Source of the DNA: Bacteroidia bacterium
GTDB lineage: Bacteria; Bacteroidota; Bacteroidia; AKYH767-A; OLB10
NCBI GenBank assembly: GCA_035275625.1
Contig: DATEMK010000564.1
Coordinates: forward strand, 1-44,011
Reading direction: 5' to 3'
DNA length: 44,011 bases
Shown here: positions 185-43,112 of the stretch, piece after piece
Layout of the letters: each line of letters starts with the position of its first letter
How positions within the stretch are numbered: the stretch's first letter is position 1
Position numbers and translations under genes: made by a program
Notes under the pieces: generated by a model
The model's database searches: none
What the model was told of the DNA's origin: nothing
Seen by the model: only the letters and a program-made list of their open reading frames with translations

Positions 185-203
185 CAGGCTTTTTCAAGCT
201 CAA

Positions 204-231
204 AACTTCAAACTTCAAACTTCAAACCCTT
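204..231. repeat. Heptamer stutter (AACTTCA x3 plus one degenerate unit) in the 5' leader
   Basis: AACTTCA AACTTCA AACTTCA AACCCTT, ending 4 nt before ATG 236. Confidence 0.9.
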
Positions 232-7138: not shown

Positions 7139-7201
7139 GTTTAGGGTTTAGCGTTTAAAGTTTGGGGTTAACTCTAAACCCTCAGCTCTAAACTCCAGAC
7201 A
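7139..7201. repeat. Nine phase-locked heptamers forming the asnS leader
   Basis: GTTTAGG GTTTAGC GTTTAAA GTTTGGG GTTAACT CTAAACC CTCAGCT CTAAACT CCAGACA. The two halves are imperfectly complementary. Confidence 0.85.
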
Positions 7202-13102: not shown

Positions 13103-13178
13103 CAATTTAGCAATTCAGCAATTTAACAATAATGCAATTTCAAATCGTACATCGTACATCTTACATCGTACATCTTTG
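13103..13178. repeat. Octamer stutter (CAATTTAG family x5) followed by heptamer stutter (ATCGTAC family x5) in the MMPL leader
   Basis: CAATTTAG CAATTCAG CAATTTAA CAATAATG CAATTTCA / ATCGTAC ATCGTAC ATCTTAC ATCGTAC ATCTTTG. Confidence 0.9.
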
Positions 13179-13205: not shown

Positions 13206-15614
13206 ATGTTTTTATTTATTTCAAAGTTCATTTTACGCAATCGGATTCCACTACTTATTTTCATGTCAGTGATAACGGCTTTTTTTGCTTACCAGGCAAC
13301 CAAAATTCAGTTAAGCTATGATTTTGCAAAAGTGCTGCCCGAAACGGATAAGTATTTTATCGAATACGAAAAATTTAAGCGGCAGTTTGGTGAAGATGGC
13401 AGCGTGCTTGTGATTGGAGTGAAGGATAAAGATTTTTTTCAGCTCAAAAAATTCAATGAATGGTTTACTCTCGGAAACGAAATAAAAAGCATTGACGGCA
13501 TTGAAGCGGTGGTTTCAGCAGCCAATATTTACAACATCACAAAAAATGAAGAAGCAAAAAAGTTTGATGTAAAACCGCTTGTCACGCACACACTGAGCTT
13601 GCAGCGGGAAGTAGACAGCATCAAAAATATTTTGGATCATCTTGTATTTTACCAGGGGTTTATCATCAACAAAGAAACAGATGCAACATTGATGGCAATC
13701 ACTTTTGACAAGAAAAAATTAAATACCAAAAACCGGATAGAAATTGTAAATATCATCAAAGAGAAAGCGCTGGCTTTCGGTAAGTCAAATAATGTGGAGG
13801 TTCATTTATCTGGCTTGCCATATATCAGGACTGCTGTGACAAAAATGGTGTCGGATGAACTTAAATTGTTTTTACTGCTCGCTCTCGGAGTTTGTTCTGT
13901 CATCCTTCTATTCTTTTTTAAAAATGTCCGGGTAGTTTTGTTTTCGCTTTTAGTCGTGATTGCCGGAGTAGTATGGTCTCTCGGCACATTATCTTTAATG
14001 GGATTCAAGATAACTATTCTTTCCTCTCTCATTCCTCCGCTGATCATTGTTATCGGAATTCCCAACAGCATTTTTTTTCTGAATAAATATCACACAGAAT
14101 ATCGCCTGCACCGGAATAAAATAAAAGCGCTGCAGCAAATGGTGCAGCGGATAGGGCTTACAACTTTTCTGGCCAATACAACATCAGCCATCGGCTTTGG
14201 TGTTTTCTATTTTACAAACAGCAATATATTGATGGAGTTTGGATTAATTGCGGCTATCAATGTAATGTCCACTTACCTGATCTCTTTAATTTTAATTCCG
14301 ATTATGTTCAGCTTTTTGCCTGCGCCTTCCATTAAGCATACAGAACATTTGCAGGGGAAAAAAATAAGCTTCCTTTTAGAATCCATTGACAAATGGGTTC
14401 ATCATAAAACAAAAATTATTTATGCTGTTGTGATTGCATTGCTGCTGGTTTCTTTTTATGGCATGAGCAAGCTGAATACGATAGGATATGTGGTGGATGA
14501 TCTTCCCAAAAAAAATCCTGTGTATCTTGATTTGAAATTTTTTGAAAGCAATTTTCACGGAGTGCTGCCTTTTGAAATTTCAATTGACGCTAAAGAAAAA
14601 GGCAAAGCGCTTCAGCATGTCACCTTGCAAAAAATAAACCGGCTTACCAAAGAATTAAATACGCATGCAGAATTTGCAAAACCGCTTTCAGTTGTTGATA
14701 TTATCAAATTTGTCAACCAGGCATACAATGACGGTGAGCCGAAATATTATATTTTACCGGGAAGCATTGAGTTAGGGCAGATCGCTGAATACCTCGGAGA
14801 AATGAAAAATAAGCAAAGCATGTTTCGTTCATTTATTGACAGCACGAAACAAATCACCCGTGTGAGTGTGCAAATGGCAGATGTTGGTTCCGTGCGAATG
14901 AAACAATTGGTGAATGAGCTCAAACCAAAAATTGATTCTATTTTCCCCCCGGCTAAATACAAAACAACCATTACCGGCAACAGCCTGATCTTTTTGAAAG
15001 GAAACGATTACCTTTTTACAAATCTTTTGGAAAGTGTTTTCCTTGCCATCTTTTTAATTTCAATCATTATGTTTCTTTTGTTTATGTCATTCCGCATGAT
15101 AGCTCTCAGCATTTTACCGAGCGTGATCCCTTTATTTATTACTGCCGGACTGATGGGTTATTTTCATATTCCTTTAAAACCTTCTACCATACTTATTTTC
15201 AGCATTGCATTTGGAATTGCCTCAGACGGAACCATTTATTTTCTTACAAAATACAGGCAGGAAATGCGTCATAAGCACATGAGCATTTCAAAAGCGGTTT
15301 CACTCACCATTAAAGAAACGGGAGTAAGCATGATCTACACTGCAGTGATTTTGTTTGCAGGATTTTTTATTTTCACGGCTTCCAGCTTTGGGGGGACTGC
15401 ATCGCTGGGTGTTTTAATTTCAATAACTTTATTGGTTGCCATGTGTTCCAACTTAATTTTGCTTCCTGCATTTCTTATTTCGCTTGAAAGAAAAATGACT
15501 ACCAAAGCATTCCTGCAGGAGCCGTTGTTACAATTTCTCAATGAAGACGAAGATATTGAGCTTGATGAGTTGGAGATAAGGAAGAACGAAAACACAGTAA
15601 ACAGTAAACAGTAA
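13206..15614 (+). CDS. RND-superfamily exporter of the MMPL/HpnN-like type
   Basis: 802 aa, with two blocks of about 6 TM helices each preceded by a large soluble loop. Sterol-sensing-like TM block. Confidence 0.8.
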   Translation: MFLFISKFILRNRIPLLIFMSVITAFFAYQATKIQLSYDFAKVLPETDKYFIEYEKFKRQFGEDGSVLVIGVKDKDFFQLKKFNEWFTLGNEIKSIDGIEAVVSAANIYNITKNEEAKKFDVKPLVTHTLSLQREVDSIKNILDHLVFYQGFIINKETDATLMAITFDKKKLNTKNRIEIVNIIKEKALAFGKSNNVEVHLSGLPYIRTAVTKMVSDELKLFLLLALGVCSVILLFFFKNVRVVLFSLLVVIAGVVWSLGTLSLMGFKITILSSLIPPLIIVIGIPNSIFFLNKYHTEYRLHRNKIKALQQMVQRIGLTTFLANTTSAIGFGVFYFTNSNILMEFGLIAAINVMSTYLISLILIPIMFSFLPAPSIKHTEHLQGKKISFLLESIDKWVHHKTKIIYAVVIALLLVSFYGMSKLNTIGYVVDDLPKKNPVYLDLKFFESNFHGVLPFEISIDAKEKGKALQHVTLQKINRLTKELNTHAEFAKPLSVVDIIKFVNQAYNDGEPKYYILPGSIELGQIAEYLGEMKNKQSMFRSFIDSTKQITRVSVQMADVGSVRMKQLVNELKPKIDSIFPPAKYKTTITGNSLIFLKGNDYLFTNLLESVFLAIFLISIIMFLLFMSFRMIALSILPSVIPLFITAGLMGYFHIPLKPSTILIFSIAFGIASDGTIYFLTKYRQEMRHKHMSISKAVSLTIKETGVSMIYTAVILFAGFFIFTASSFGGTASLGVLISITLLVAMCSNLILLPAFLISLERKMTTKAFLQEPLLQFLNEDEDIELDELEIRKNENTVNSKQ

Positions 15615-15650
15615 ACAATTGGTCAACCTCAAACTTCAAACCTCAAACCT
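15595..15650. repeat. Eight phase-locked heptamers spanning the MMPL stop codon and the rfbA leader
   Basis: CAGTAAA x3, CAATTGG, TCAACCT, CAAACTT, CAAACCT x2. It ends 3 nt before ATG 15654. The MMPL TAA stop (15612-15614) lies inside the third CAGTAAA. Confidence 0.9.
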
Positions 15651-16522: not shown

Positions 16523-16662
16523 GTTATTAGTTATTAGTTATTAGTTATTAGTTAATTGTTAATTGTCAGTTACTGGTTGTCGGTCCTGAATTGTGAATTG
16601 TGAATTATAAATTGTACTTTGTACTTTGTAAATCTTAAATCGTATATCTTAAATCATACATC
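16523..16662. repeat. Twenty heptamers in perfect register, filling almost the whole rfbA-epimerase spacer
   Basis: GTTATTA x4, GTTAATT x2, GTCAGTT, ACTGGTT, GTCGGTC, CTGAATT, GTGAATT x2, ATAAATT, GTACTTT x2, GTAAATC, TTAAATC, GTATATC, TTAAATC, ATACATC. AAAAAG and ATG 16669 follow. Confidence 0.95.
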
Positions 16663-17610: not shown

Positions 17611-17750
17611 TTTTTTATGATGGACAAAATAAAATGATGGTGGACTTGATGGTTACCTTTTATATGCTGCCTTTAAACCCCAAATTCTTTAATCTCATTT
17701 TTTGAACTGTAAACTGTAAATTTCTGCTCCTCACCCCGATCCCTGACCAA

Positions 17751-30779: not shown

Positions 30780-31006
30780 CTCGGGGAAGAATGGTTTAAG
30801 GTAAGGTTTAAAGTTTAAGGTTTTCGGATCCTTGTGGATTTAAAATCCTTAAATAATTATTCTGAATGTGAATTTTTAAACCAAACCCTGATTATTTTTT
30901 TTAATTTTTTAATTTCCGGCTTAGAAAGTCGGCTAAAATAAAACAAAATTTAATACGAATACGAGTGAATGCGAACTGCATCTGCACGTTTTCACAGTGA
31001 ATTAGT

Positions 31007-31591
31007 TTAAAGACTGCCCAATGCTGATTTAATTAATTCTTCCACGCTCAGGTCTGTGCCTTTAGATTTGATGGCATGGTCCAATGATTTTTCAGCAGCA
31101 TTTTTTGCAAATCCTAAAGTTAATAAAGCACTTAACGCTTCATCGCGGTTTGTATTGTGGATAATGGAAATCATCTTTGTGTTTGCATCGGTTTTTGCCA
31201 GCTTGTCTTTGAGATCAATGATGATGCGCTGCGCAGATTTTGAACCGATGCCTTTTATATTTTGCAATACGGGCGCATTACCGGTTACGATTGCCTGCGC
31301 AATTTCAACGGGCGTTAAGGAAGAGAGCATCATGCGTGCAGTGGCAGCGCCCACGCCTGAAACGCTGATGAGGTTGCGGAACATCCTGCGCTCGTCTTCA
31401 TCGGCAAAGCCATACAGGGTATGCGCATCTTCTTTAATTGCAAGATGCGTAAATATTTTGCAGTGGCTTCCTTCCTGTACTTTACTGTAGGTATTTAACG
31501 AAATATTTACCTGGTACCCGATGCCTGCACATTCGAGCACAATGTGCGTGGCGGTTTTTGAAATTATTTTTCCTGAGATGTAATCGTACAT
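31007..31591 (-). CDS. ruvA: Holliday junction branch migration complex subunit RuvA
   Basis: MYDYISGKI... OB-fold N-terminus and two HhH motifs (ISVSGVGAATA, IKGIGSKSAQRI). Confidence 0.95.
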   Translation of the reverse strand: MYDYISGKIISKTATHIVLECAGIGYQVNISLNTYSKVQEGSHCKIFTHLAIKEDAHTLYGFADEDERRMFRNLISVSGVGAATARMMLSSLTPVEIAQAIVTGNAPVLQNIKGIGSKSAQRIIIDLKDKLAKTDANTKMISIIHNTNRDEALSALLTLGFAKNAAEKSLDHAIKSKGTDLSVEELIKSALGSL

Positions 31592-31601
31592 TTGGCAATT
31601 A

Positions 31602-31625
31602 GTAATTGGGTAATTGGGTAATTGG
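31602..31625. repeat. Octamer stutter GTAATTGG x3 in the ruvA leader
   Basis: Read directly. It is preceded by the degenerate unit GCAATTA and begins 11 nt upstream of the ruvA ATG. Confidence 0.9.
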
Positions 31626-31668: not shown

Positions 31669-31676
31669 CAAAAGTA
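31669..31676 (-). promoter_or_regulatory. Candidate -7 box (TACTTTTG on the minus strand) for ruvA
   Basis: CAAAAGTA on the + strand, 78 nt upstream of the ruvA ATG. The stutter lies between the box and the ATG. Confidence 0.3.
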
Positions 31677-31721
31677 ATTTATTGCTGATTAACTTTTTGC
31701 TGAATGCAATAACCTTTACAT

Positions 31722-32225
31722 GATCTGTTGAGCCCGCATGGCTTGCGATGGAGGTATTTTTATAATCACCTGCGCACTTTCTTTAATCACTTGTGACATT
31801 ACTGCAATCTGTTGCGCTCCCGCTGTGATCTGTTGTGACAAATTTGTAATCTGTGGTTTCCGCGCGGGGATCAACAGCCGCCTCGACACAATCAGTTGTT
31901 TATTTATTGCAATCACAGGTTCCTTTACGAAAATCAGTGGTTTGCTTTCCGAAATCAGAGGTTATCTCTCCTGGATTGCTGGTGTGCTTTAAGGAATCGT
32001 TGGTTGTCTTTACGGGGTTGGGGGTTCTCTCTCCGGGATCGTTGGCAGGCTCTTGGTGATTTTTAGTCGCCTTTCAAAAATTCGCAGTGTGCTTACGAGG
32101 ATGATGAGTTCCCTCTCCGGGATTCGAGGTGTGCTTTTGAAAATTCGTGGTGCCCCCGCGACAATTTGCGGCCACCTCGTGGAGATTGCTGGTAATTTCC
32201 TTGTGGGTGGAGGTGAGTTCTTGGT
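31722..32225. repeat. Array of 24 tandem 21-bp units in perfect phase (diverged, no indels)
   Basis: An RATY core (GATC/AATC/GATT/AATT) sits at 31722+21n for nearly every n from 0 to 22. Consensus is about RATCnnTGGTnnnCTYTCnnn. Confidence 0.9.
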
Positions 32226-32229
32226 TTGA
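31738..32229 (+). pseudogene. Conceptual heptad-repeat ORF (I-x-G/C/S-x-L-x-x, 22 heptads) interrupted by one TAA; coding status unproven
   Basis: ATG 31738 to TGA 32227-32229 is open except for TAA at 31990-31992. Synonymous-type variation occurs at the conserved Ile, Gly and Leu codons. There is no family match and the antisense frame is also largely open. Confidence 0.3.
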
Positions 32230-32549
32230 ACATGGGATTTGTAAGGTTTCGGGAGGAATTTATTGTTTTTGGAGGAAGTGTTTCAGGAGAATTTTGGAAA
32301 GGTTCTGATGTTGAATGAGTTTGGATTTTGAGTGGTGCTGACGGTGAGGGGATTTGTGGTGTAAGGGATTTAGGGAAGGAGTTTTTGGAAAAAGGGAAGT
32401 TGAATTGATCGGTTAATTGCAAGTTTTGAGCCAGAAAAAAGTAAATTGTCTGAACCTTGATTAAATGGATTAAGAGATTAGTATGATTAAAAATGAAACA
32501 GATTTTGAAATCCTTTTCATAGTCTTATGAGAAATGAGAGGTTATGAAA

Positions 32550-33992
32550 CTACATTACGTCAATGAGAGTACCATCTCCGAACGCTCCGACAAGTTCTGA
32601 TTCAATAGGGCGGCAAATGTCTCTTTCATCCAAAATGGGTTCAAAACTTTTCCCATATTTATCAGGATTACGATAAAGATGTGACTCACCGAAATTGAGT
32701 ATGGTATACCAACTATTTGGTGAAAAGGAATTGTGATCTTCAGCAATCTGCTGAATAAAACAACCTAATGCATAACAAGACATTTTGCTTGCAGGCATTT
32801 TTAATTCCTCATAAATTATTTTTGCAAATGAGTGATATTTCTTTGAAGTAACAATTACTGATTTATCTTCTACGTGATTTATGACAGTTGCTTTTTCTTC
32901 TCTTGCGCCAATTATTTGCAATTTGCTTAATCTGGAAAGGTCAATTTTTTTTGATTTGCAGGCTTCAGGATTTCGCTTTAATTCATTACGCTTCCTGGTA
33001 AGGCTTTTTAACATGTCTCCAGAAGTGCAAAAAGGAATATATAAAAAATCGGCATAGCTGTTGAACAACTCCTCGTAAAGGGCGTTTTTATTTGTCAATT
33101 TATTTTCCGCAAAATATTCCTGATCCTTAATGTAGTATCCATTTCTGTTAAAAGTTAAATCCAAAACCTCAGTGGTTGTCAATTTATTAAAATTAACATC
33201 AGAATAATCATATTGTACAACACAACCAATTTTTTCTAATTTTCCACCATCTGCTCTCTCAGATTCTTTACATAATACCCGTAATGGCGCCATTCCAAAA
33301 CTGGATAAAAAATATTGGAGACTGAAAGCAAGTTTGCATTTGAAGACTGTGCTTAAAACAGGCAACGCAGTTTTTTGCAGTAAATTTTTTTCTATCAACG
33401 ACCTGTAGATATTAAATATATCAATTGCTTCGCGATCATTGAAATGTCCCGTTGGAAGGGTGGATTCATCTTTTATATAAACATTTTTAAATGGTATTAA
33501 TTTACTTATAATTGGCATTAGTTCATTTAATATTTTTTTGATAATTTTTATATCATCTTTAACCTCCTGTATACTATTTAAATTTTCTAACTTTTTTTCG
33601 AATTTGCTGAGTATATCCACAAAATTTATGCGGAAGTTATTTGTAGCTGGGTTTGGAAATTCATAGAGAAAATTTTCATATTCAGGCATAGGAAAGTTTT
33701 CTATGGCTTGCGAAAAAGGTTTGCCTGTACTGTAAGTATTTAAGGCTGTCAGAATATTATAACTACATCCATGTTTTTTAAAACTACTTTCTAATGATTT
33801 ATAATAATAGGTCTGAAAAACCGTGGAGTAAGACAGTTTATAATCCAAGTCGGAATTTGAATTAATGTGGTTTACGAGCGCTTTAAAACTTTCCTCATCA
33901 TTTTTCCACTTATAACCAGGATTTTCAAACAGGAATCGTTTAATGGCTTGTTTTAATAAATCGCTAATTGTCTGGGATGTAACTTGAGGCAT
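32550..33992 (-). CDS. Fold-type-II PLP-enzyme-like protein (Trp-synthase-beta/threonine-synthase superfamily) lacking the Schiff-base lysine, with an unknown N-terminal domain of about 160 aa
   Basis: Residues 171-188 VYIKDESTLPTGHFNDRE align with the family motif K-x-E-x-x-N-P-T-G-S-F-K-D-R, but with N184 where the PLP lysine belongs. About 300 aa follow, which is the expected domain length. IPFCTSGDM sits where the phosphate-binding Gly loop is expected. AT-rich gene. Confidence 0.55.
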   Translation of the reverse strand: MPQVTSQTISDLLKQAIKRFLFENPGYKWKNDEESFKALVNHINSNSDLDYKLSYSTVFQTYYYKSLESSFKKHGCSYNILTALNTYSTGKPFSQAIENFPMPEYENFLYEFPNPATNNFRINFVDILSKFEKKLENLNSIQEVKDDIKIIKKILNELMPIISKLIPFKNVYIKDESTLPTGHFNDREAIDIFNIYRSLIEKNLLQKTALPVLSTVFKCKLAFSLQYFLSSFGMAPLRVLCKESERADGGKLEKIGCVVQYDYSDVNFNKLTTTEVLDLTFNRNGYYIKDQEYFAENKLTNKNALYEELFNSYADFLYIPFCTSGDMLKSLTRKRNELKRNPEACKSKKIDLSRLSKLQIIGAREEKATVINHVEDKSVIVTSKKYHSFAKIIYEELKMPASKMSCYALGCFIQQIAEDHNSFSPNSWYTILNFGESHLYRNPDKYGKSFEPILDERDICRPIESELVGAFGDGTLIDVM

Positions 33993-34322
33993 TTCTTTAA
34001 AATTTAGGAGTTAAAATTATTTTTCACGATTTTCATTCTCATAATATAAAGGTAGTAAAAGTTTGCAAAGGAAACAAATTTTTTTTATCAAATTAAAGTT
34101 GTCTGAGCATTAAATTTTTATTTTTTTTTATTTTTTATCAACAATTTTTGTTTAATAAGTATTAATAATGCGGTAAATTAAATAAATATGCCATCCCTTG
34201 TCCAGATATTTCTTTTTGCTTCTCTTCAAAAGATTTGCAATAATATGTCAAATATAACTTTCATGCAAATATAAAAAAGTAAATATGTGATAAACGTGAA
34301 AAAACGTTGGACGTAATGAAAT

Positions 34323-34340
34323 ATCATACTTTAGTATGAT
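34323..34340. promoter_or_regulatory. Perfect 8-2-8 palindrome ATCATACT-TT-AGTATGAT (operator-like)
   Basis: Read directly. It is centred about 45 bp upstream of the candidate -7 box of the 374-aa/CHASE2 operon, inside the 432-bp divergent intergenic region. Confidence 0.4.
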
Positions 34341-34376
34341 TTTACGAAATTACTTTTTTTTCATGTTTCTCTTTCA

Positions 34377-34384
34377 TAGATTTG
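34377..34384 (+). promoter_or_regulatory. Candidate -7 box (TAGATTTG) for the 374-aa/CHASE2 operon
   Basis: Exact TAnnTTTG match 40 nt upstream of ATG 34425. Confidence 0.35.
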
Positions 34385-34424
34385 GTGGTGTTAAAATACT
34401 GAAACCATTAAAAACATTAAAAAA

Positions 34425-35549
34425 ATGAAAAACGTTTACTCTAACCCCGTGAAGATTTTCTTCGTCCGGGCGGCCAGTGGCAAATTGTTATTATTTGTTG
34501 TCTTGTTTATTTTCTCCGGCTTTTCCTTGCATCCTCAATGCATTTTACCGGATTCTATCTTGCAACAGGTCAAAATTATTGAATTTCCACCAGAATGGTG
34601 TGATCAACTTTTGCCTGTCGTATATGACATGCGAAAGAATAATATGGCTTCGTGCAGAGATATTAAAGACTACCTTGATTCAAATATCCGTGGTGGGGCA
34701 AAATTCGAAATTGAAGTTTTGTTTGGAACAAAATGGGTTACAATAAAATCGTGTACTTCCTATCAAGAGGAAAAAAACCAAGTCCCAGGACGAATTGATT
34801 TGGCTACTGAAGAAATAACTTTTAATTCTGATGCGCGCTATTCCAAAGCAAAATCTTTGCTGGAAAATGAAATCAGCCGATTTTGTTTTAAATTGGATTC
34901 GATAACCGTGGAGGACTCATCCGTAATGCCTTTGCTTAATATGTTTTCACAATTTTTAGCAACAAGGTTTACAGAAAAAGGGGACATCATTCAAATAGAT
35001 TCAACAGTTTCCAGCCAGGTTCTACTTAAGGATAGTTCATATGAACAATTCACCGGACTTAATGACTTGTCAATAGCACCGGTTGTTACAGTATTGCTTT
35101 CCGACAATGATTTGTCGGACAAAAAACGCCTGCAAGATTACAACGATTGGCTGAATACAAAATATGTTGCAGAAATGTCTTCATTAACAGGTTTAATATT
35201 TGAAGATATGAAAAAAGCAAAATCAGAAATTCTACATTCCGAACAACCGTTTGAAAGCGGACAAAATGTTAATGTTAAAAAAAATAAAGTGAATAAAACA
35301 GATACGGTTTCTGTTAGGACATGCCCTTTTTTAAACAGTCTGCCAAAAGAAAATAAAGCCTCTTTAAAATTTGAACTAAGATTTTTATCGTATAAAGAAA
35401 AAACGGAAGTTATTCAATTAATCAGTGTTTTAAAATCAATTTGTCCAGATATTACTCCAGAAGAATTACTCATAGAGGTAAAAAATCATTTGCGGAAGAA
35501 GTATGATTTTGTTAATGATGCTATGGTTGATTCATTGGTAATAAAATAA
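34425..35549 (+). CDS. Hypothetical exported or membrane-anchored protein
   Basis: N-terminal hydrophobic segment KLLLFVVLFIFSGFSL, no recognised domain. Its stop lies 33 nt before the next ORF on the same strand. Confidence 0.65.
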   Translation: MKNVYSNPVKIFFVRAASGKLLLFVVLFIFSGFSLHPQCILPDSILQQVKIIEFPPEWCDQLLPVVYDMRKNNMASCRDIKDYLDSNIRGGAKFEIEVLFGTKWVTIKSCTSYQEEKNQVPGRIDLATEEITFNSDARYSKAKSLLENEISRFCFKLDSITVEDSSVMPLLNMFSQFLATRFTEKGDIIQIDSTVSSQVLLKDSSYEQFTGLNDLSIAPVVTVLLSDNDLSDKKRLQDYNDWLNTKYVAEMSSLTGLIFEDMKKAKSEILHSEQPFESGQNVNVKKNKVNKTDTVSVRTCPFLNSLPKENKASLKFELRFLSYKEKTEVIQLISVLKSICPDITPEELLIEVKNHLRKKYDFVNDAMVDSLVIK

Positions 35550-35582
35550 ATTTTCAAAAAATCTAAAAAACTCAAAATCGAA

Positions 35583-37034
35583 ATGCATACTCTTTCCATA
35601 ATAATATTAAAAACTGAAGAGAAGTATAATGCCTGGCGCGAAAAAACGAAAAAAAATTTCGGTGTAATTTTTTTGGGATCATTGTTTTTTACTGCAGCAA
35701 CTTTATTAGTTACCGTTTATTTAAGCTATTGGTTTAGCGTTGAATCTTTATATGGTGAGTTTACAGGAATAAAGCGTTGGGGGATTTTTGGCAATCATTT
35801 TAAACAACGTGATTTTATTGAAAGCAATTTTCTTTTATTGGATGTGAATCATGATATTTCAGCGGCATATTCCGATTTTGACATTTCTGATAAAGACATT
35901 GATAAAATTCCTTTGGTGGGCGTACCAAACAGGAAAAAATTGGCTACTGTATTAAAATGGCTTTATGCTAATCAAAATTTATACGAAGTGATAATCAGCG
36001 ATGTCCTATTCACCAAAAAATCATTGGCTTATCCTGAAAAATTACCGAAGCATTATTATGATTCATTATCAAAATCATATCGAGATACAGTACTCTTGAC
36101 TTATATAAATTATGATGACAGTATTATACGATATTTTGATTTGCTTGATTCAAAACGCAAAATTATTGCAGCCGGAGAGTATAATGGAAATGCATTCGAA
36201 AAGGATATTTTATCCGGATCCCACTTTAATCCTGATAGCAGAGGATACGTAAATTGCAGTGATGATGAACAAACCCGGTTCCTGAATTATAAATTAGCAC
36301 GTTGCAATTCGAAAAATAAAACATTTTTGAGCTTACCACTTAAAATGTATGAAAGGATAAATCATAAAACAATTTCAGCTAATGGCAGGGAATTGACACT
36401 TAATATTGCTGACTCAGATAACCGGAAAAAAAAATTTAAATTTTGGGGCTTTTATTTGAATCAATTTGTTCCTGAATTTTATTATAATCAAAAGGATATT
36501 GATAATTTGTTAACTTATGCAAAGTCTGAATTCCCAGATTCAGAAAGAGTATCCTTAATTACCTTAAATGAATCTTATGTTTATCCAGAGCGTATTAAAA
36601 AAATCCTTTTAAGTGATCAAGGGAATAGAAAAAGCATATTTATCGGCTCGTTTGACCGCAATCAATCCGATAAGCATGATGTTTTACAGGCGGGAATGAT
36701 GAATGGATCATCTATCATATTGAATGTATATTACAATTTGCGGAAACAGCAGAACAAATTAAGTATCGTTTTGATTATTTCGCTTATCGTCTTATATTTT
36801 ATAATTCTTTCTATTTACGTAAGCCAAACCATAAATAATATTATTCTAACCATTGTAGCACATATTGGGCATGAATTGCATTATTATGGCCTCGCTTTTT
36901 TGTTAATCATTGTATCATTTTGTTTTAATGTTACTATGAGAATTATTGTACTTGAAGTTTTGCTATTTATTGCAGGATTACTTTTAAGGGGATTTAAAAT
37001 AGTTATTAAGAAAAAGCAAAGTCATGGGGAGTAA
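35583..37034 (+). CDS. CHASE2-like extracytoplasmic sensor-domain membrane protein without any output domain
   Basis: One N-terminal TM, an ectodomain of about 330 aa, then 3 C-terminal TMs and a stop. Ectodomain blocks match CHASE2 as I recall it: FLLLDVNHD...VPNRKKLATVLKWL...VIISDVLF, then GYVNCSDDEQTRFLNYKL...FLSLPLKMY, then SIFIGSFDRNQSDKHDV...MMNGSSIILNVYYNL. Confidence 0.6.
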   Translation: MHTLSIIILKTEEKYNAWREKTKKNFGVIFLGSLFFTAATLLVTVYLSYWFSVESLYGEFTGIKRWGIFGNHFKQRDFIESNFLLLDVNHDISAAYSDFDISDKDIDKIPLVGVPNRKKLATVLKWLYANQNLYEVIISDVLFTKKSLAYPEKLPKHYYDSLSKSYRDTVLLTYINYDDSIIRYFDLLDSKRKIIAAGEYNGNAFEKDILSGSHFNPDSRGYVNCSDDEQTRFLNYKLARCNSKNKTFLSLPLKMYERINHKTISANGRELTLNIADSDNRKKKFKFWGFYLNQFVPEFYYNQKDIDNLLTYAKSEFPDSERVSLITLNESYVYPERIKKILLSDQGNRKSIFIGSFDRNQSDKHDVLQAGMMNGSSIILNVYYNLRKQQNKLSIVLIISLIVLYFIILSIYVSQTINNIILTIVAHIGHELHYYGLAFLLIIVSFCFNVTMRIIVLEVLLFIAGLLLRGFKIVIKKKQSHGE

Positions 37035-37347
37035 CCGCTGAAAAAAAATAATTTGATTTTTTAAATCCGTTTTATAGCCTTTATGAAAAATGAAGTATTT
37101 GCAACTTTATTCAGATAAACTTCAATCTTCCGGCAAAATGAATTGATCAGTGTATGATTCCTCACGAATTATTTTTGATATAAAAGAGAGATCATCAGGA
37201 TTGATTCTTTTTAAAAATAAATTTGACACCCGTTTGGGATTTTTATCCTGTATTACAATCTCTGTCGCTTTGATTAACGACTGAAATATGGATCTGTCAA
37301 TTATTCGATTGTAATATGGAAACGAATACCCGGGAGCTACCCAGTTT

Positions 37348-37674
37348 ATGGAAACAGCACCAGATTTTTACAATGAGCTGATTGCGTCATTTGAAATTAA
37401 CGATTACCCGACTCATTATACTGAGTTTGATATCCTGACAAGAGATAAAGCAACGGGAGAAGCATTGGGCGGAGTGAAAATTACTGCTACTTGTACAAAG
37501 GGCAGCATGGAGCAATTTTCGAACCCGGAAGGTGCCGCAGATTTTATCCAGTTTAAGCCGACCTGGTGGACGCTTACTTACGAATGTCCCGGTTATGAAA
37601 AACTGGTAATGCCAAACCAGAAGGCTGAAAAAGGAGTCAAGATGAGCCTTGTGGCTGAACTTGTAAAGATTTAA
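37348..37674 (+). CDS. Small protein with a carboxypeptidase-regulatory-like (prealbumin-fold) segment; possibly a gene fragment
   Basis: ILTRDKATGEALGGVKITAT...NPEGAADF resembles the CarboxypepD_reg pattern. No signal peptide. A strong terminator follows. Confidence 0.45.
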   Translation: METAPDFYNELIASFEINDYPTHYTEFDILTRDKATGEALGGVKITATCTKGSMEQFSNPEGAADFIQFKPTWWTLTYECPGYEKLVMPNQKAEKGVKMSLVAELVKI

Positions 37675-40569: not shown

Positions 40570-43112
40570 AAAATATCAGCGAATACGAATTAACAAACAG
40601 AACTTTGAACTTTAAACTTAACTCGTACATTGTAAATTGTACATCGTACATAATTAAAAAGTTTTTACTTGTCCTTTTTGGAATATTATTTTTTTCCACA
40701 ATAAGCAATGCGCAAACCTGGAGCATTTCGGGAAAAGTTATTGACGCCTTAACACGCGACCCGGTTGATTATGCGTATGTCACCGCAACGGGTGATTCAG
40801 CTTTTGCAGTTACTGATGCAGATGGAAACTATACCATATATATAAGCAGTTCTGCAAAGGCTATCGCTGTTTTAGCAGACGGCTATGCAAAATTTACCAT
40901 ACCGGTAAAAAATATTATCAGGATGACTCTGAATGTGGAGCTTACAGCCAATGCATCACGGGTGACAACTGAAGCAAATAAAGCAGGGGAGAAACCGGTG
41001 GAATATCTTGTGGAAAAAATAATTGAAAACAGGGATAAGAACGATCCTGTAAATAATGATTATTTCAGCTATCGCACGTATGAAAAAATAGAATTTGACC
41101 TTGCAAATGTTTCAGATAAGATCAAAGAAAAAAAAGTCATGAAACCGTTTGCATTTATTTTTGATAACATGGATTCCGTTACCACTAACGGGAAACCATT
41201 CCTGCCTTTCTTTTTTACTGAAACCCTTTCCGATGTATATTATGAGCATAAGCCAAAACAAAAGCGTGAAATAGTTATTGCAAGCAAAACAGCCGGGGTT
41301 GAAAACTTAACCCTGATTCAATTGCTCAAAGACATTTACCGCGACATAACAATTTATGATAATTACATCAATGTTTTCGGAAAAAGCTTTATCAGCCCTG
41401 TTTCAAATGAAGGGTTGAAACATTATGATTATTTAATCAGGGATACTACCATTATTGACGGGAAAACGTGTTATAAAATTATTTTTTCGGCAAAGAAAAA
41501 ATTCGATCTCACGTTTAATGGTGAGTTCTGGTTTCACGACACTACGTTTGCTGTTCAGCGCATCACTATGTATCTTAATAAAGATGCCATGATAAATTTT
41601 GTAGACGATTTTAAATTTGTAAAAGTTTTCAAAAATATTGATGACAATAAATGGGTGTCTGACCGTGAACAATTAGTGGTGCAGTTCTCCAACCGCGAAA
41701 AGGGAATGAGCATCATCGGGCGAAAATCACAATATTATGCAGACACAAAAATCAATCAGCCTCCGGCTGATTCAGTTTTCAAAATAACATCCACCATTCG
41801 TTTTGATCCAATGGCGTATGATCAGCCCAACAAGTTCTGGAGAGACGAACGGCTTGAAAAACTTACAGACCGTGAAAAAGATATATATGATTTAGTGGAC
41901 ACCTTAAAAAAACTGCCTGCATTCCAGATCTATGTAGGTTCGGTGGTGGTTGCATTAACCGGTTATGTGCCTTATGGCAAAATTGACTATGGCCCTTATT
42001 ATCATTTAATCACTAACAACACTTTAGAAGGAATCAGGTTCCGTTTTGGCGGGCGAACAAATGAAAAATTCAGCACGCGCTGGCAATTTGAAGGCTATGG
42101 CGCTTATGGCACATTGGACGGAACTTTCAAATACATGGGAGGGATACGTTATGCTATTAAAAGAAAACCTTTTAAGGCAATAGGCTTCCAGTATAAAAAT
42201 GATGTGGTGCAACCCGGCTTGTATGAAGGATATTTTAAAGACGAAGGATGGATTGTAATTTTATTTAAACGCAATCCTTCCGACAAAATGTGTAAAGTTG
42301 AATCTCAAAAAGTTTACTATGATGCAGCCTACCGTTCGGGATTGTCCTTTCGCCTGCAGTATCTTAAAAATCATTACACCACTGTTGGCAACATTAATTT
42401 TGATTATTATGCCAATGACAGCAGAACGATAATAAAAAATGATTTGCACACCTCGGAATTCTGGCTGAGCGCAAGATATTCTTACGGAGAAAAATTTATT
42501 GAAAAAAAATACAAGCGGTATTCGCTGGGTTCTGATAATCCTGTTTTCCAGCTAAACTACATAAAGGGTTTGAAAAATTTCCTGGATGGCGAATTCAGTT
42601 ATTCTAAAATTGCAGCGAGATTGACTGACAAGCTTAATTTATTTCCTTACGGACATTTGAATTATTCCTTTGAAGCGGGAAAAGTTTTTGGAAATGTTCC
42701 CTATCCGCTGCTGTATGTGCATCGCGGCAATGAATCGCGGCTTTTTGATTACACAGCATTTAATTTAATGAATCATTACGAGTTTGTTTCTGACAGGTAT
42801 GCAGGCGCAAGTGCTGAACATCATTTTGACGGTTTTGCTTTGCGCAGAATTCCATTGATAAGAAAATTGGACTGGCGCGAAATTGTTTCAGCCAGGATAT
42901 TGTTCGGCCATCTGTCACAGAAAAACAAAGAGATTTTATTTGATCCGGCTAATGTCTCTAACATACGTACCACACCCTATATAGAAGCCGGTGTTGGCCT
43001 TGAAAATATTTTGAAACTGATACGAATTGATGCGCTTTGGCGTTTAACCTATCTTAATAATCCCGTTGCGTCAAACTTTGGCGTACGTGCAAGCCTTCAG
43101 TTATTGTTCTGA
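40548..43112 (+). CDS. Carboxypeptidase-regulatory-like domain plus DUF5686-like outer-membrane-associated protein
   Basis: SGKVIDALTRDPVDYAYVT CarboxypepD_reg pattern after the signal peptide (I)KKFLLVLFGILFFSTISNAQ. The coordinates give the maximal ORF from TTG 40548, which overlaps the previous gene. The real start is probably TTG 40605, or ATT 40653 directly after the stutter leader. Confidence 0.78.
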   Translation: MGSAWGLKNISEYELTNRTLNFKLNSYIVNCTSYIIKKFLLVLFGILFFSTISNAQTWSISGKVIDALTRDPVDYAYVTATGDSAFAVTDADGNYTIYISSSAKAIAVLADGYAKFTIPVKNIIRMTLNVELTANASRVTTEANKAGEKPVEYLVEKIIENRDKNDPVNNDYFSYRTYEKIEFDLANVSDKIKEKKVMKPFAFIFDNMDSVTTNGKPFLPFFFTETLSDVYYEHKPKQKREIVIASKTAGVENLTLIQLLKDIYRDITIYDNYINVFGKSFISPVSNEGLKHYDYLIRDTTIIDGKTCYKIIFSAKKKFDLTFNGEFWFHDTTFAVQRITMYLNKDAMINFVDDFKFVKVFKNIDDNKWVSDREQLVVQFSNREKGMSIIGRKSQYYADTKINQPPADSVFKITSTIRFDPMAYDQPNKFWRDERLEKLTDREKDIYDLVDTLKKLPAFQIYVGSVVVALTGYVPYGKIDYGPYYHLITNNTLEGIRFRFGGRTNEKFSTRWQFEGYGAYGTLDGTFKYMGGIRYAIKRKPFKAIGFQYKNDVVQPGLYEGYFKDEGWIVILFKRNPSDKMCKVESQKVYYDAAYRSGLSFRLQYLKNHYTTVGNINFDYYANDSRTIIKNDLHTSEFWLSARYSYGEKFIEKKYKRYSLGSDNPVFQLNYIKGLKNFLDGEFSYSKIAARLTDKLNLFPYGHLNYSFEAGKVFGNVPYPLLYVHRGNESRLFDYTAFNLMNHYEFVSDRYAGASAEHHFDGFALRRIPLIRKLDWREIVSARILFGHLSQKNKEILFDPANVSNIRTTPYIEAGVGLENILKLIRIDALWRLTYLNNPVASNFGVRASLQLLF
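40600..40655. repeat. Eight phase-locked heptamers (GAACTTT to CATCGTA family)
   Basis: GAACTTT GAACTTT AAACTTA ACTCGTA CATTGTA AATTGTA CATCGTA CATAATT, followed by AAAAAG as at 16663-16668. Confidence 0.88.

Follow-up and report, generated by a model that had tools for sequence, protein, structure and literature searches.

A phase-locked 21-bp repeat array with a C-depleted tail between ruvA and an orphan gene of a Bacteroidia bacterium

The spacer between ruvA and an orphan gene on a contig of an uncultured Bacteroidia bacterium (DATEMK010000564.1) holds an array of 21-bp units whose phase is real and beyond chance, whose unit positions are individually constrained, and which runs directly into a C-depleted tail. 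An array joined to a comparable tail recurs in a second lineage of Bacteroidota. In our reading, array and tail form a composite element that does not code and works at the level of the nucleic acid, possibly by offering a series of evenly phased binding sites; we give this reading a probability of about 0.35. We infer further that a protein binds the element, and that it binds DNA and not a transcript. The array is best filed as an unusual variant of the bacterial tandem-repeat or iteron-like arrays; judged by sequence, it appears to belong to no described family among those tested. The whole stretch of DNA analysed, 44,011 nucleotides long, is called the window below, and the coordinates of its relevant features are collected in Table 1.

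Table 1. Features of the ruvA spacer and its surroundings (window coordinates)
Feature	Position	Strand	Remarks
ruvA (RuvA_N, HHH_5, RuvA_C)	31007..31591	-	last gene syntenic with the nearest related genome
GTAATTGG x3 octamer repeat	31602..31625	+	in the leader of ruvA, whose start codon is 11 nt away
candidate ruvA -7 box TACTTTTG	31669..31676	-	78 nt upstream of the ruvA ATG
21-bp array	31722..32225	+	autocorrelation, core pattern, weight matrix
mechanical 84-aa ORF, heptad frame	31738..31992	+	ATG to TAA; judged not a gene
degenerate slot	31743..31763	+	leave-one-out score -7.4; unit model not matched, length still 21 bp
tail	32230..32440	+	4% C, 36% G, 35% T; GC skew +0.81
orphan 480-aa gene, NCBI VJY62_19735	32550..33992	-	its end lies 120 nt from the tail

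Structure of the array and its genomic setting

The array consists of 24 contiguous 21-bp slots, 23 of which are recognisable as units, and extends over 504 bp without an indel. Autocorrelation of positions 31722-32229 reaches 0.507, 0.513 and 0.481 at lags of 21, 42 and 63, and stays at 0.20-0.30 at the remaining lags, 20 and 22 included; recoding to purine/pyrimidine raises the lag-21 value to 0.73, over a base value of 0.49. No sub-period at 7 or 10-11 bp was found by autocorrelation of the array, in purine/pyrimidine code either. A pattern of six RATY....G cores spaced exactly 21 bp apart has seven matches, all of them in the array and none elsewhere in the window, and 100 shuffles of the window gave 0.00 matches. 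With a leave-one-out weight matrix, offset 0 was the best within +/-10 bp for 23 of the 24 units. These results bear out the phase-locked, indel-free array that a sequence-only reading of this DNA had proposed, and also its estimate that the units are about half identical, since mean pairwise identity is 0.45 (0.51 for neighbours, 0.35 for units that lie 20 apart). This divergence is too great for TRF, which detects just 2.5 copies (31911-31963).

On the + strand the unit has the consensus R-A-T-Y-n-(G)-(T)-G-G-Y-n-n-n-C-T-Y-n-Y-n-R-n, and its RATY core, taken as a degenerate pattern, is self-complementary. Position 9 is G in all units, position 2 is A in 21 and position 3 is T in 22 of the 24; positions 1, 4, 10, 16, 18 and 20 are restricted to purine or pyrimidine, and positions 5, 12 and 21 are free. 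Variation at the conserved positions consists of transitions only, within the R or Y classes. Counts of non-consensus bases range from 0 to 17 of 24 between unit positions, a spread of roughly four times the binomial variance by our own arithmetic. The conserved positions form three blocks (2-4, 8-10 and 14-16).

The GC content of the array is 45-51%. From left to right its C content drops and its G content climbs, and the GC skew rises gradually toward the tail, where base depletion is stronger than anywhere else in the 44-kb window. Within the tail, GGRATTT motifs recur at irregular intervals and resemble remnants of the unit core that have fallen out of phase. Array and tail (32230-32440) are treated here as one composite element because the tail directly adjoins the array, its GGRATTT motifs are core-like, and the skew rises across the array into it. 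The curvature predicted by a wedge model is ordinary (ratio of end-to-end distance to contour length 0.845 for the array, 0.826 +/- 0.098 for shuffles).

The element sits in a spacer of 958 bp. On the ruvA side, the octamers of the ruvA leader carry both half-motifs found in the array unit, RATY and, after it, GG(G)T. The candidate box TACTTTTG fits the Bacteroidetes -7 promoter motif, TAnnTTTG, and the surrounding sequence, TTGCAAAAGTAATTTA, is conserved in the nearest genome (L002; RuvA 88% identical); the region 31669-31676 is likely to be the ruvA promoter and marks the end of homology with that genome. The sequence-only reading had proposed a comparison with the ruvA flanks of related genomes. 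The nearest genome shares sprA, ruvA and the ruvA promoter region, and homology to it ceases about 30 bp before the first array unit, which marks a synteny break. Upstream of its ruvA lie genes for an SMR transporter and a DnaJ-like protein, with no array, and nothing of its upstream 4 kb was found in the window.

To the right of the array, VJY62_19735 is the first gene in an island of orphan genes with about 30% GC, and the neighbouring genes bear NCBI locus tags of the series VJY62_197xx. The three largest island proteins gave no match in Pfam, NCBIfam, PHROG or PADLOC scans, and in the protein collection the island proteins find only themselves or single near-identical copies. The 480-aa gene has no relative but itself in viral contigs, JGI metagenomes and 5.8 billion protein clusters. 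No tRNA genes and no convincing flanking repeats were seen at the island edges. The array shows no sequence similarity to plasmid and phage records. The sole further assembly of the source organism, a Logan contig, is identical in sequence. A replication origin was considered and rejected, as DnaA boxes occur at chance level without clustering and there is no skew switch.

Coding potential of the heptad frames

The array can be read as heptads, and the sequence-only reading had described a nearly open + frame. This frame is open from the ATG at 31738 to the TGA at 32227-32229 with a single stop in 163 codons (TAA, 31990-31992), and the complementary frame carries the three clustered stops described for it. 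The array could be the gene of a heptad-repeat protein, or a recently inactivated one, encoded in the + frame (I-x-G-x-L-S-x) or in the minus frame (x-x-[KE]-x-[TA]-T-[DN]). The alignment of the conserved blocks 2-4, 8-10 and 14-16 with codons of the + frame favours such a gene and counts against a non-coding element, and in the minus frame unit positions 5 and 8 are the freely varying third positions of ACN/RCN codons. We nevertheless find the coding reading unsupported and a coding array rather unlikely: the array is probably not a gene, and most likely it is the repeat that brings about the heptad frame as a by-product.

Stops are not depleted beyond composition, with 2 observed in the + heptad frame against 3.3 +/- 1.7 expected from column-shuffled units, and the near-openness of this frame is explained by the unit consensus together with low A content. 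The minus frame, with its three stops, has no usable start. Codon structure is negative in every frame (-0.25 in the + heptad frame, -0.12 to -0.47 over all six), whereas the comparison genes score positively in their true frames, host genes at +0.26 +/- 0.07 and island orphans at +0.11 to +0.24.

The clearest of the coding tests is the pattern at four-fold sites of the + heptad frame, which are bound by nucleotide class: codons 3, 5 and 7 show 13Y:1R, 17Y:0R and 2Y:13R, respectively. As the restriction runs in opposite directions at different codons, it is explained neither by codon bias nor by strand composition nor by amino-acid selection. GGT accounts for 11 of the 14 GGN codons in this frame versus 18% in host genes, the "Ser" of codon 3 is invariably AGY, and ATA is never used. 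The interchanges of G/C/S at codon 3 and of L/P/F at codon 5 would be drastic in a protein, yet they are single-base neighbours around the fixed G9 and T15. The wobble variation that had been taken as a trace of protein-level selection is therefore misread, being made up of transitions within R/Y classes and departing from the synonymous expectation. Counting substitutions by codon position, another proposed check, does not single out a coding frame: pN/pS is 0.72-0.92 across frames and none stands out. It is 0.60 and 0.63 in the true frame of two real heptad genes. Two further measures carry little weight. The BLOSUM column-shuffle test, which worked on one control (z 6.7, true frame), is weak because unit subfamilies confound it in other arrays; information by codon position (0.63/0.81/0.59 in the array, 0.98/1.28/0.50 in the heptad gene P0014) discriminates weakly and does not reliably separate coding from non-coding arrays.

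Homology and structure tests are equally unsupportive of the heptad protein. The conceptual products of three frames match nothing in Pfam or NCBIfam beyond a sub-threshold DUF3519, a word-based search among 5.8 billion clusters returned no homologue of the array product, and the AlphaFold model of the conceptual product has a pLDDT of 52.8. The candidate array ORFs are absent from the protein collection, in which the neighbouring genes are present with NCBI accessions. The sole gene call within the array, made on the Logan contig, is a 66-aa minus-strand ORF (31716-31916) that does not use the heptad frame.

Support for a heptad protein comes from a search of 1.84 billion proteins with a profile of the + frame, for which four pieces of 35 residues were used. 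Of its 27 matches, about half are junk ORFs consisting of perfect repeats; the others, with E-values down to 7e-12, belong to a genuine family, so far unannotated, of small phage proteins of 81-154 aa (P0004-P0009, P0017, P0018, P0020, P0022, P0023) plus longer forms (P0014, P0016). Their heptad is I-[RST]-G-[DN]-[LV]-[ST]-G, framed by a conserved N-terminus (MKKxLxRI..WYY..G.KI.GAP) and a conserved C-terminus (DCxITxEERxKGIxVxDLI), and one member (L203) lies among phage early genes with ERF and YqaJ. The family has in common with the window frame a 21-bp DNA period without indels and the I, G, L and S/T positions of the heptad, and its heptad HMM scores the window + frame highest among 200 loci (19.7 bits over 22 heptads). 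The phage genes differ in their terminal modules, in a D/N that hardly varies, in an uninterrupted ORF and in wobble positions that are free to vary. In the six-frame translation of the whole window, the HMM of the C-terminal module found no match and that of the N-terminal module only noise outside the array (E 0.12 and above), and the fourth heptad position of the window is V, A, D, R, S, G, L, Y, C, H, N or E, so that D/N is not kept. Membership of the array in the phage family was consequently rejected on the missing modules, the lost D/N, the low heptad-HMM score for the array as a whole, the TAA and the R/Y-bound four-fold sites. The earlier statement that the array has no family match holds for Pfam and NCBIfam, but the profile does reach this family. 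The unannotated small phage heptad-repeat family is a real by-find of the search.

A second array with a depleted tail

Among 80 ruvA loci of other Bacteroidota examined for arrays, one, from a distant lineage (L007; RuvA 59% identical), carries an array of 21-bp units that lies 3.6 kb from ruvA. The related loci L326 and L327 show the order hppD, perfect terminator hairpin, array, AT-rich spacer, gyrA. The L007/L326 units are 91-94% identical (YCAGGTYAGMACCRATTGTTG), read AATY-GGT....CTG on the opposite strand, and three of their four polymorphic positions are transitions. These near-identical strains differ in copy number by whole 21-bp steps, L007 having 17.5 units and L326 having 20.5.

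This array resembles the one in the window in its 21-bp period, in RATY followed by GGT, in the prevalence of transitions, in its intergenic position beside a housekeeping gene, and in a C-depleted stretch of about 200 nt in matching orientation whose words are partly common to both tails. In L326 these ~200 nt follow the array on the RATY-GGT strand, contain 5% C and are the most skewed stretch of the 10-kb locus. The two arrays differ in unit identity (91-94% vs 45%), in the placement of GGT (directly after RATY vs 3 nt later), in the terminator hairpin at the border, in the two fully open frames of the second array, and in locus. A match between the units themselves at 13 of 21 positions has no significance on its own when rotations and strands are allowed for, the score of the L007 unit against the window matrix is 4.8 bits, and homology was rejected on this ground; a single exact L007 unit in viral contigs is one chance match.

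In 735 kb of related Bacteroidota DNA there are three independent places with 5% or less C or G over 150 nt, and two of the three abut a 21-bp array; the flanks of unrelated 21-bp arrays (n=349) have a median minimum base fraction of 0.145. The tails of the window and of L326 have 12 8-mers in common, TGGGATTTG, TTTTGGAAA, TGGTGCTGAC and TGAATTGAT among them, against 3.5 +/- 2.3 in shuffles (P=0.003), and it is this k-mer excess that is significant, a global alignment of the two tails being unconvincing. The second instance supports a recurrent array-plus-tail module, coding or not.

On the coding side, the L326 frame CCQV[SR]T[ND], with which the minus frame of the window is comparable, is open from a TTG start with pN/pS 0.46. 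The antisense frame TIGSDLA is open as well and lacks a start codon, and it scores 32.5 bits, above threshold, on the Pfam model Hydro_N_hd, a helical heptad domain. A coding origin is kept alive by these two open frames, one of them above the Pfam threshold.

The same locus bears on a transcript from the minus strand, which would begin with a G-depleted, C/A-rich leader of about 200 nt and continue into the repeats, serving either as an unstructured RNA (one that sponges a protein, for example) or as a zone past the 480-aa gene where Rho loads and transcription terminates. Rho utilisation sites are typified by unstructured RNA rich in C and poor in G, and the tail on the minus strand has 4% G and 36% C and starts 120 nt past the stop of the 480-aa gene. 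In the second lineage a G-poor leader, the array and a perfect intrinsic terminator hairpin follow each other in the same orientation. Neither strand folds better than shuffles, as would be expected of unstructured RNA, and a tolerance of transitions only is what G-U wobble pairing would allow. The array itself, however, is not G-poor, prediction across the window yields neither a promoter nor a terminator for a transcript of this kind, and we know of no meaning that a 21-nt period would have for Rho or for known sponge RNAs. We consider this transcript improbable. A structured RNA finds no support, with fold z-scores of the two strands at +1.5 and +0.8, slightly worse than shuffles; Rfam 15 gives no gathering-score match anywhere in the window, nor one at E<=1 between 31500 and 32600.

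Copy-number steps of 21 are also what a minisatellite would show. The window array might be an old and functionless one, kept in phase mechanically by whole-unit slippage and in-register recombination, with its conserved positions reflecting ancestry. Tandem arrays of 21 bp are very common (at least 120 in metagenomes and at least 120 in viral contigs), and some divergent ones, L123 for example, are closed in all frames. The window copies stand head to tail; their similarity decays with distance, as local duplication predicts, and the nearest genome is wholly without the array. Against such an origin, variability between unit positions is uneven (0 to 17 of 24) while the free positions are saturated, the restriction to purine or pyrimidine is position-specific, and 504 bp contain no out-of-phase indel whereas the adjoining tail has lost phase. 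A functionless array is unlikely in our judgement. In scans for phased RATY....G cores, the matches listed are unrelated 21-bp arrays, and among these matches only the coding phage heptad genes L247 and L233 come near the window matrix.

Constraint on nucleotides and comparison with known systems

The preferred reading, a non-coding element acting at the nucleic-acid level, rests on exact spacing combined with saturated free positions, fixed positions and positions confined to R or Y, which together argue for selection on the nucleic acid. The array probably grew by duplication of whole units. Selection would then have acted on nucleotides and not on codons, fixing A2, T3 and G9, binding six positions to R or Y, leaving the rest free and keeping the spacing exact. 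Two turns of DNA at 10.5 bp per turn make 21.0 bp. In the mechanism that we hold most likely, about 23 equivalent weak sites placed two helical turns apart would face one side of the DNA and could be bound cooperatively by a protein, the whole resembling an oversized iteron or centromere-like array. The sequence-only reading had held phased binding sites and a repeat RNA to be equally viable; the class constraint and the spacing agree with a role at the nucleic-acid level, and it is the structured form of the RNA that the folds and Rfam speak against.

In favour of the element are a phase that stays exact over 504 bp despite saturated free positions and its location exactly at the end of homology with the nearest genome. 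Against it, no orthologous array was found and the nearest genome has none. A binding platform in particular has to contend with conserved blocks about 6 bp apart within the unit, which are not the usual one-face contacts, with 23 sites, far above typical iteron sets, and with the lack of unusual predicted curvature; no DNA-binding, replication or partition gene is recognisable nearby.

Iteron and centromere-like arrays include the 22-bp iterons of the R6K gamma origin, sopC of F, and parC of R1 and pSK41. The window array resembles them in having direct repeats of about 20 bp in helical phase, fixed and free positions, a place in non-coding DNA and foreign-looking genes alongside; with 23 units of exactly 21 bp, it falls within the range of direct repeats of ~17-22 bp in helical phase that characterises iterons. 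It is unlike them in its 23-24 units instead of 3-12 and its chromosomal setting, and it lacks a cognate Rep or Par gene, an AT-rich unwinding region and DnaA boxes.

A broader and more doubtful proposal is that Bacteroidota carry an undescribed, fast-evolving composite made of a phase-locked 21-nt RATY/GGT array and a one-base-poor stretch of about 200 nt in fixed orientation, located beside housekeeping promoters (ruvA; gyrA) and serving as a scaffold or encoding start-codon-poor heptad micro-proteins. The window copy would be old and the L007/L326 copies young. If the module is a true family, it would constitute a new class of bacterial non-coding element, and two-turn spacing under selection amid drifting sequence would imply a partner that binds DNA or RNA, in a phylum where regulatory elements have been little charted. 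The recurrent link between an array and an extremely skewed tail is worth a genome-wide survey. For annotation, the array is a warning that a near-open heptad frame can arise from repeat composition alone, and position-specific R/Y constraint at four-fold sites offers a simple discriminator of coding sequence from such a by-product.

A CRISPR array was rejected, as the units are contiguous and conserved and free positions are interleaved inside each 21-mer. Tandem repeats of the heptanucleotide TAACTGA upstream of start codons have been described in Beggiatoaceae, Cyanobacteria and a few Bacteroidetes (PMC4679880). The three GTAATTGG copies adjoin the array and have its half-motifs, and 21 equals 3 x 7; unlike the heptanucleotide repeats, which occur in 2-5 copies, the array is a true 21-mer present in 24. 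A 7-nt repeat of the STRR/TAACTGA type was rejected, with lags 7 and 14 at the background value of 0.25 and no such signal in R/Y code. Tandem repeats of 7-8 bp, of which GTAATTGG x3 is one, abound in the source genome immediately before start codons, a likeness to the TAACTGA repeats.

Possible leader, junction and candidate promoter beside the array

The stretch that directly follows the array (32230-32440, 200 bp) contains 4% C on the plus strand, so that the minus strand is G-poor and C-rich, and it starts 120 nt past the stop codon of the orphan 480-aa gene. Judged by sequence, this minus-strand composition is as expected for a Rho utilisation site. An ATG lies exactly at the meeting point of the G-poor leader and the array, both in the window and in L326, one of the loci of a second Bacteroidota lineage with a 21-bp array. 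The first residues of the two ORFs starting there are alike (MFKPRTH... versus MSFPKHT...).

In the other orientation, TACATTTG, the second match in this region to the Bacteroidetes -7 promoter motif TAnnTTTG, would be the sole candidate promoter for any plus-strand transcript; the number of such matches across the whole window is at chance level.

Repeat arrays of the second lineage and short repeats upstream of genes

The array between hppD and gyrA in the second lineage differs by three units between strains with 99% identical hppD, and its units vary at the same four positions, in reshuffled combinations. In L007, another locus of this lineage, the CCQ frame of the array is closed by TGA in one unit.

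Many genes in the genome of the window carry, 4-115 nt ahead of their start codon, a short sense-oriented tandem repeat made up of 2-5 copies of a 7-8-nt unit. The units are G-poor on the mRNA strand, and their sequence is gene-specific rather than common to the genes. These repeats resemble the TAACTGA heptamer repeats (PMC4679880) known from a few Bacteroidetes as well as from Beggiatoaceae and Cyanobacteria, except that here the units vary gene by gene.

Coordinates of repeats, junction ORFs, candidate promoter and phage heptad-repeat family
Feature	Location	Strand	Remark
7-8-nt tandem repeats	window 203-227, 7139-7169, 13144-13174, 15594-15650, 16523-16655, 17705-17720, 30793-30823, 31602-31625, 40600-40651		others besides
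TACATTTG, second TAnnTTTG match	window 31587-31594	+	overlaps ruvA start codon, directed at array
Junction ATG ORF	window 32234-32094	-	46 codons
Junction ATG ORF	L326, leader/array junction	reverse	11 codons
hppD-gyrA 21-bp array	L007:53-420; L326:4246-4686; L327 likewise		
Phage family, proteins	P0004-P0009, P0017, P0018, P0020, P0022, P0023, P0014, P0016		
Phage family, loci	L203:6001-6252, L204:3001-3954, L205:3001-4095, L233, L247		

Phage heptad-repeat proteins

Small phage proteins with I-[RST]-G-[DN]-[LV]-[ST]-G heptads apparently form an undescribed family, no member of which has a Pfam family. Their 5-20 heptads are flanked by conserved N- and C-terminal segments, the C-terminal one reading DCxITxEERxKGIxVxDLI, and one member adjoins ERF and YqaJ in a phage early region.

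Low-GC island and left window edge

The island at 32500-37500 has a low GC content of about 30%, and its genes (480, 374, 483, 108 and 96 aa) have relatives in none of the libraries tried. Inspected by eye, the sequence of the 483-aa product seems to be hydrophobic in stretches at either end; the NCBI annotation places its start further downstream, giving 450 aa.

At the left edge of the window (positions 1-150), sequence similar to a tRNA 3' end (ggttcgagccc...) occurs twice, both times with a T-run after it. ARAGORN reported zero tRNAs in the window, and the first of the two stretches is probably cut off by the window edge.
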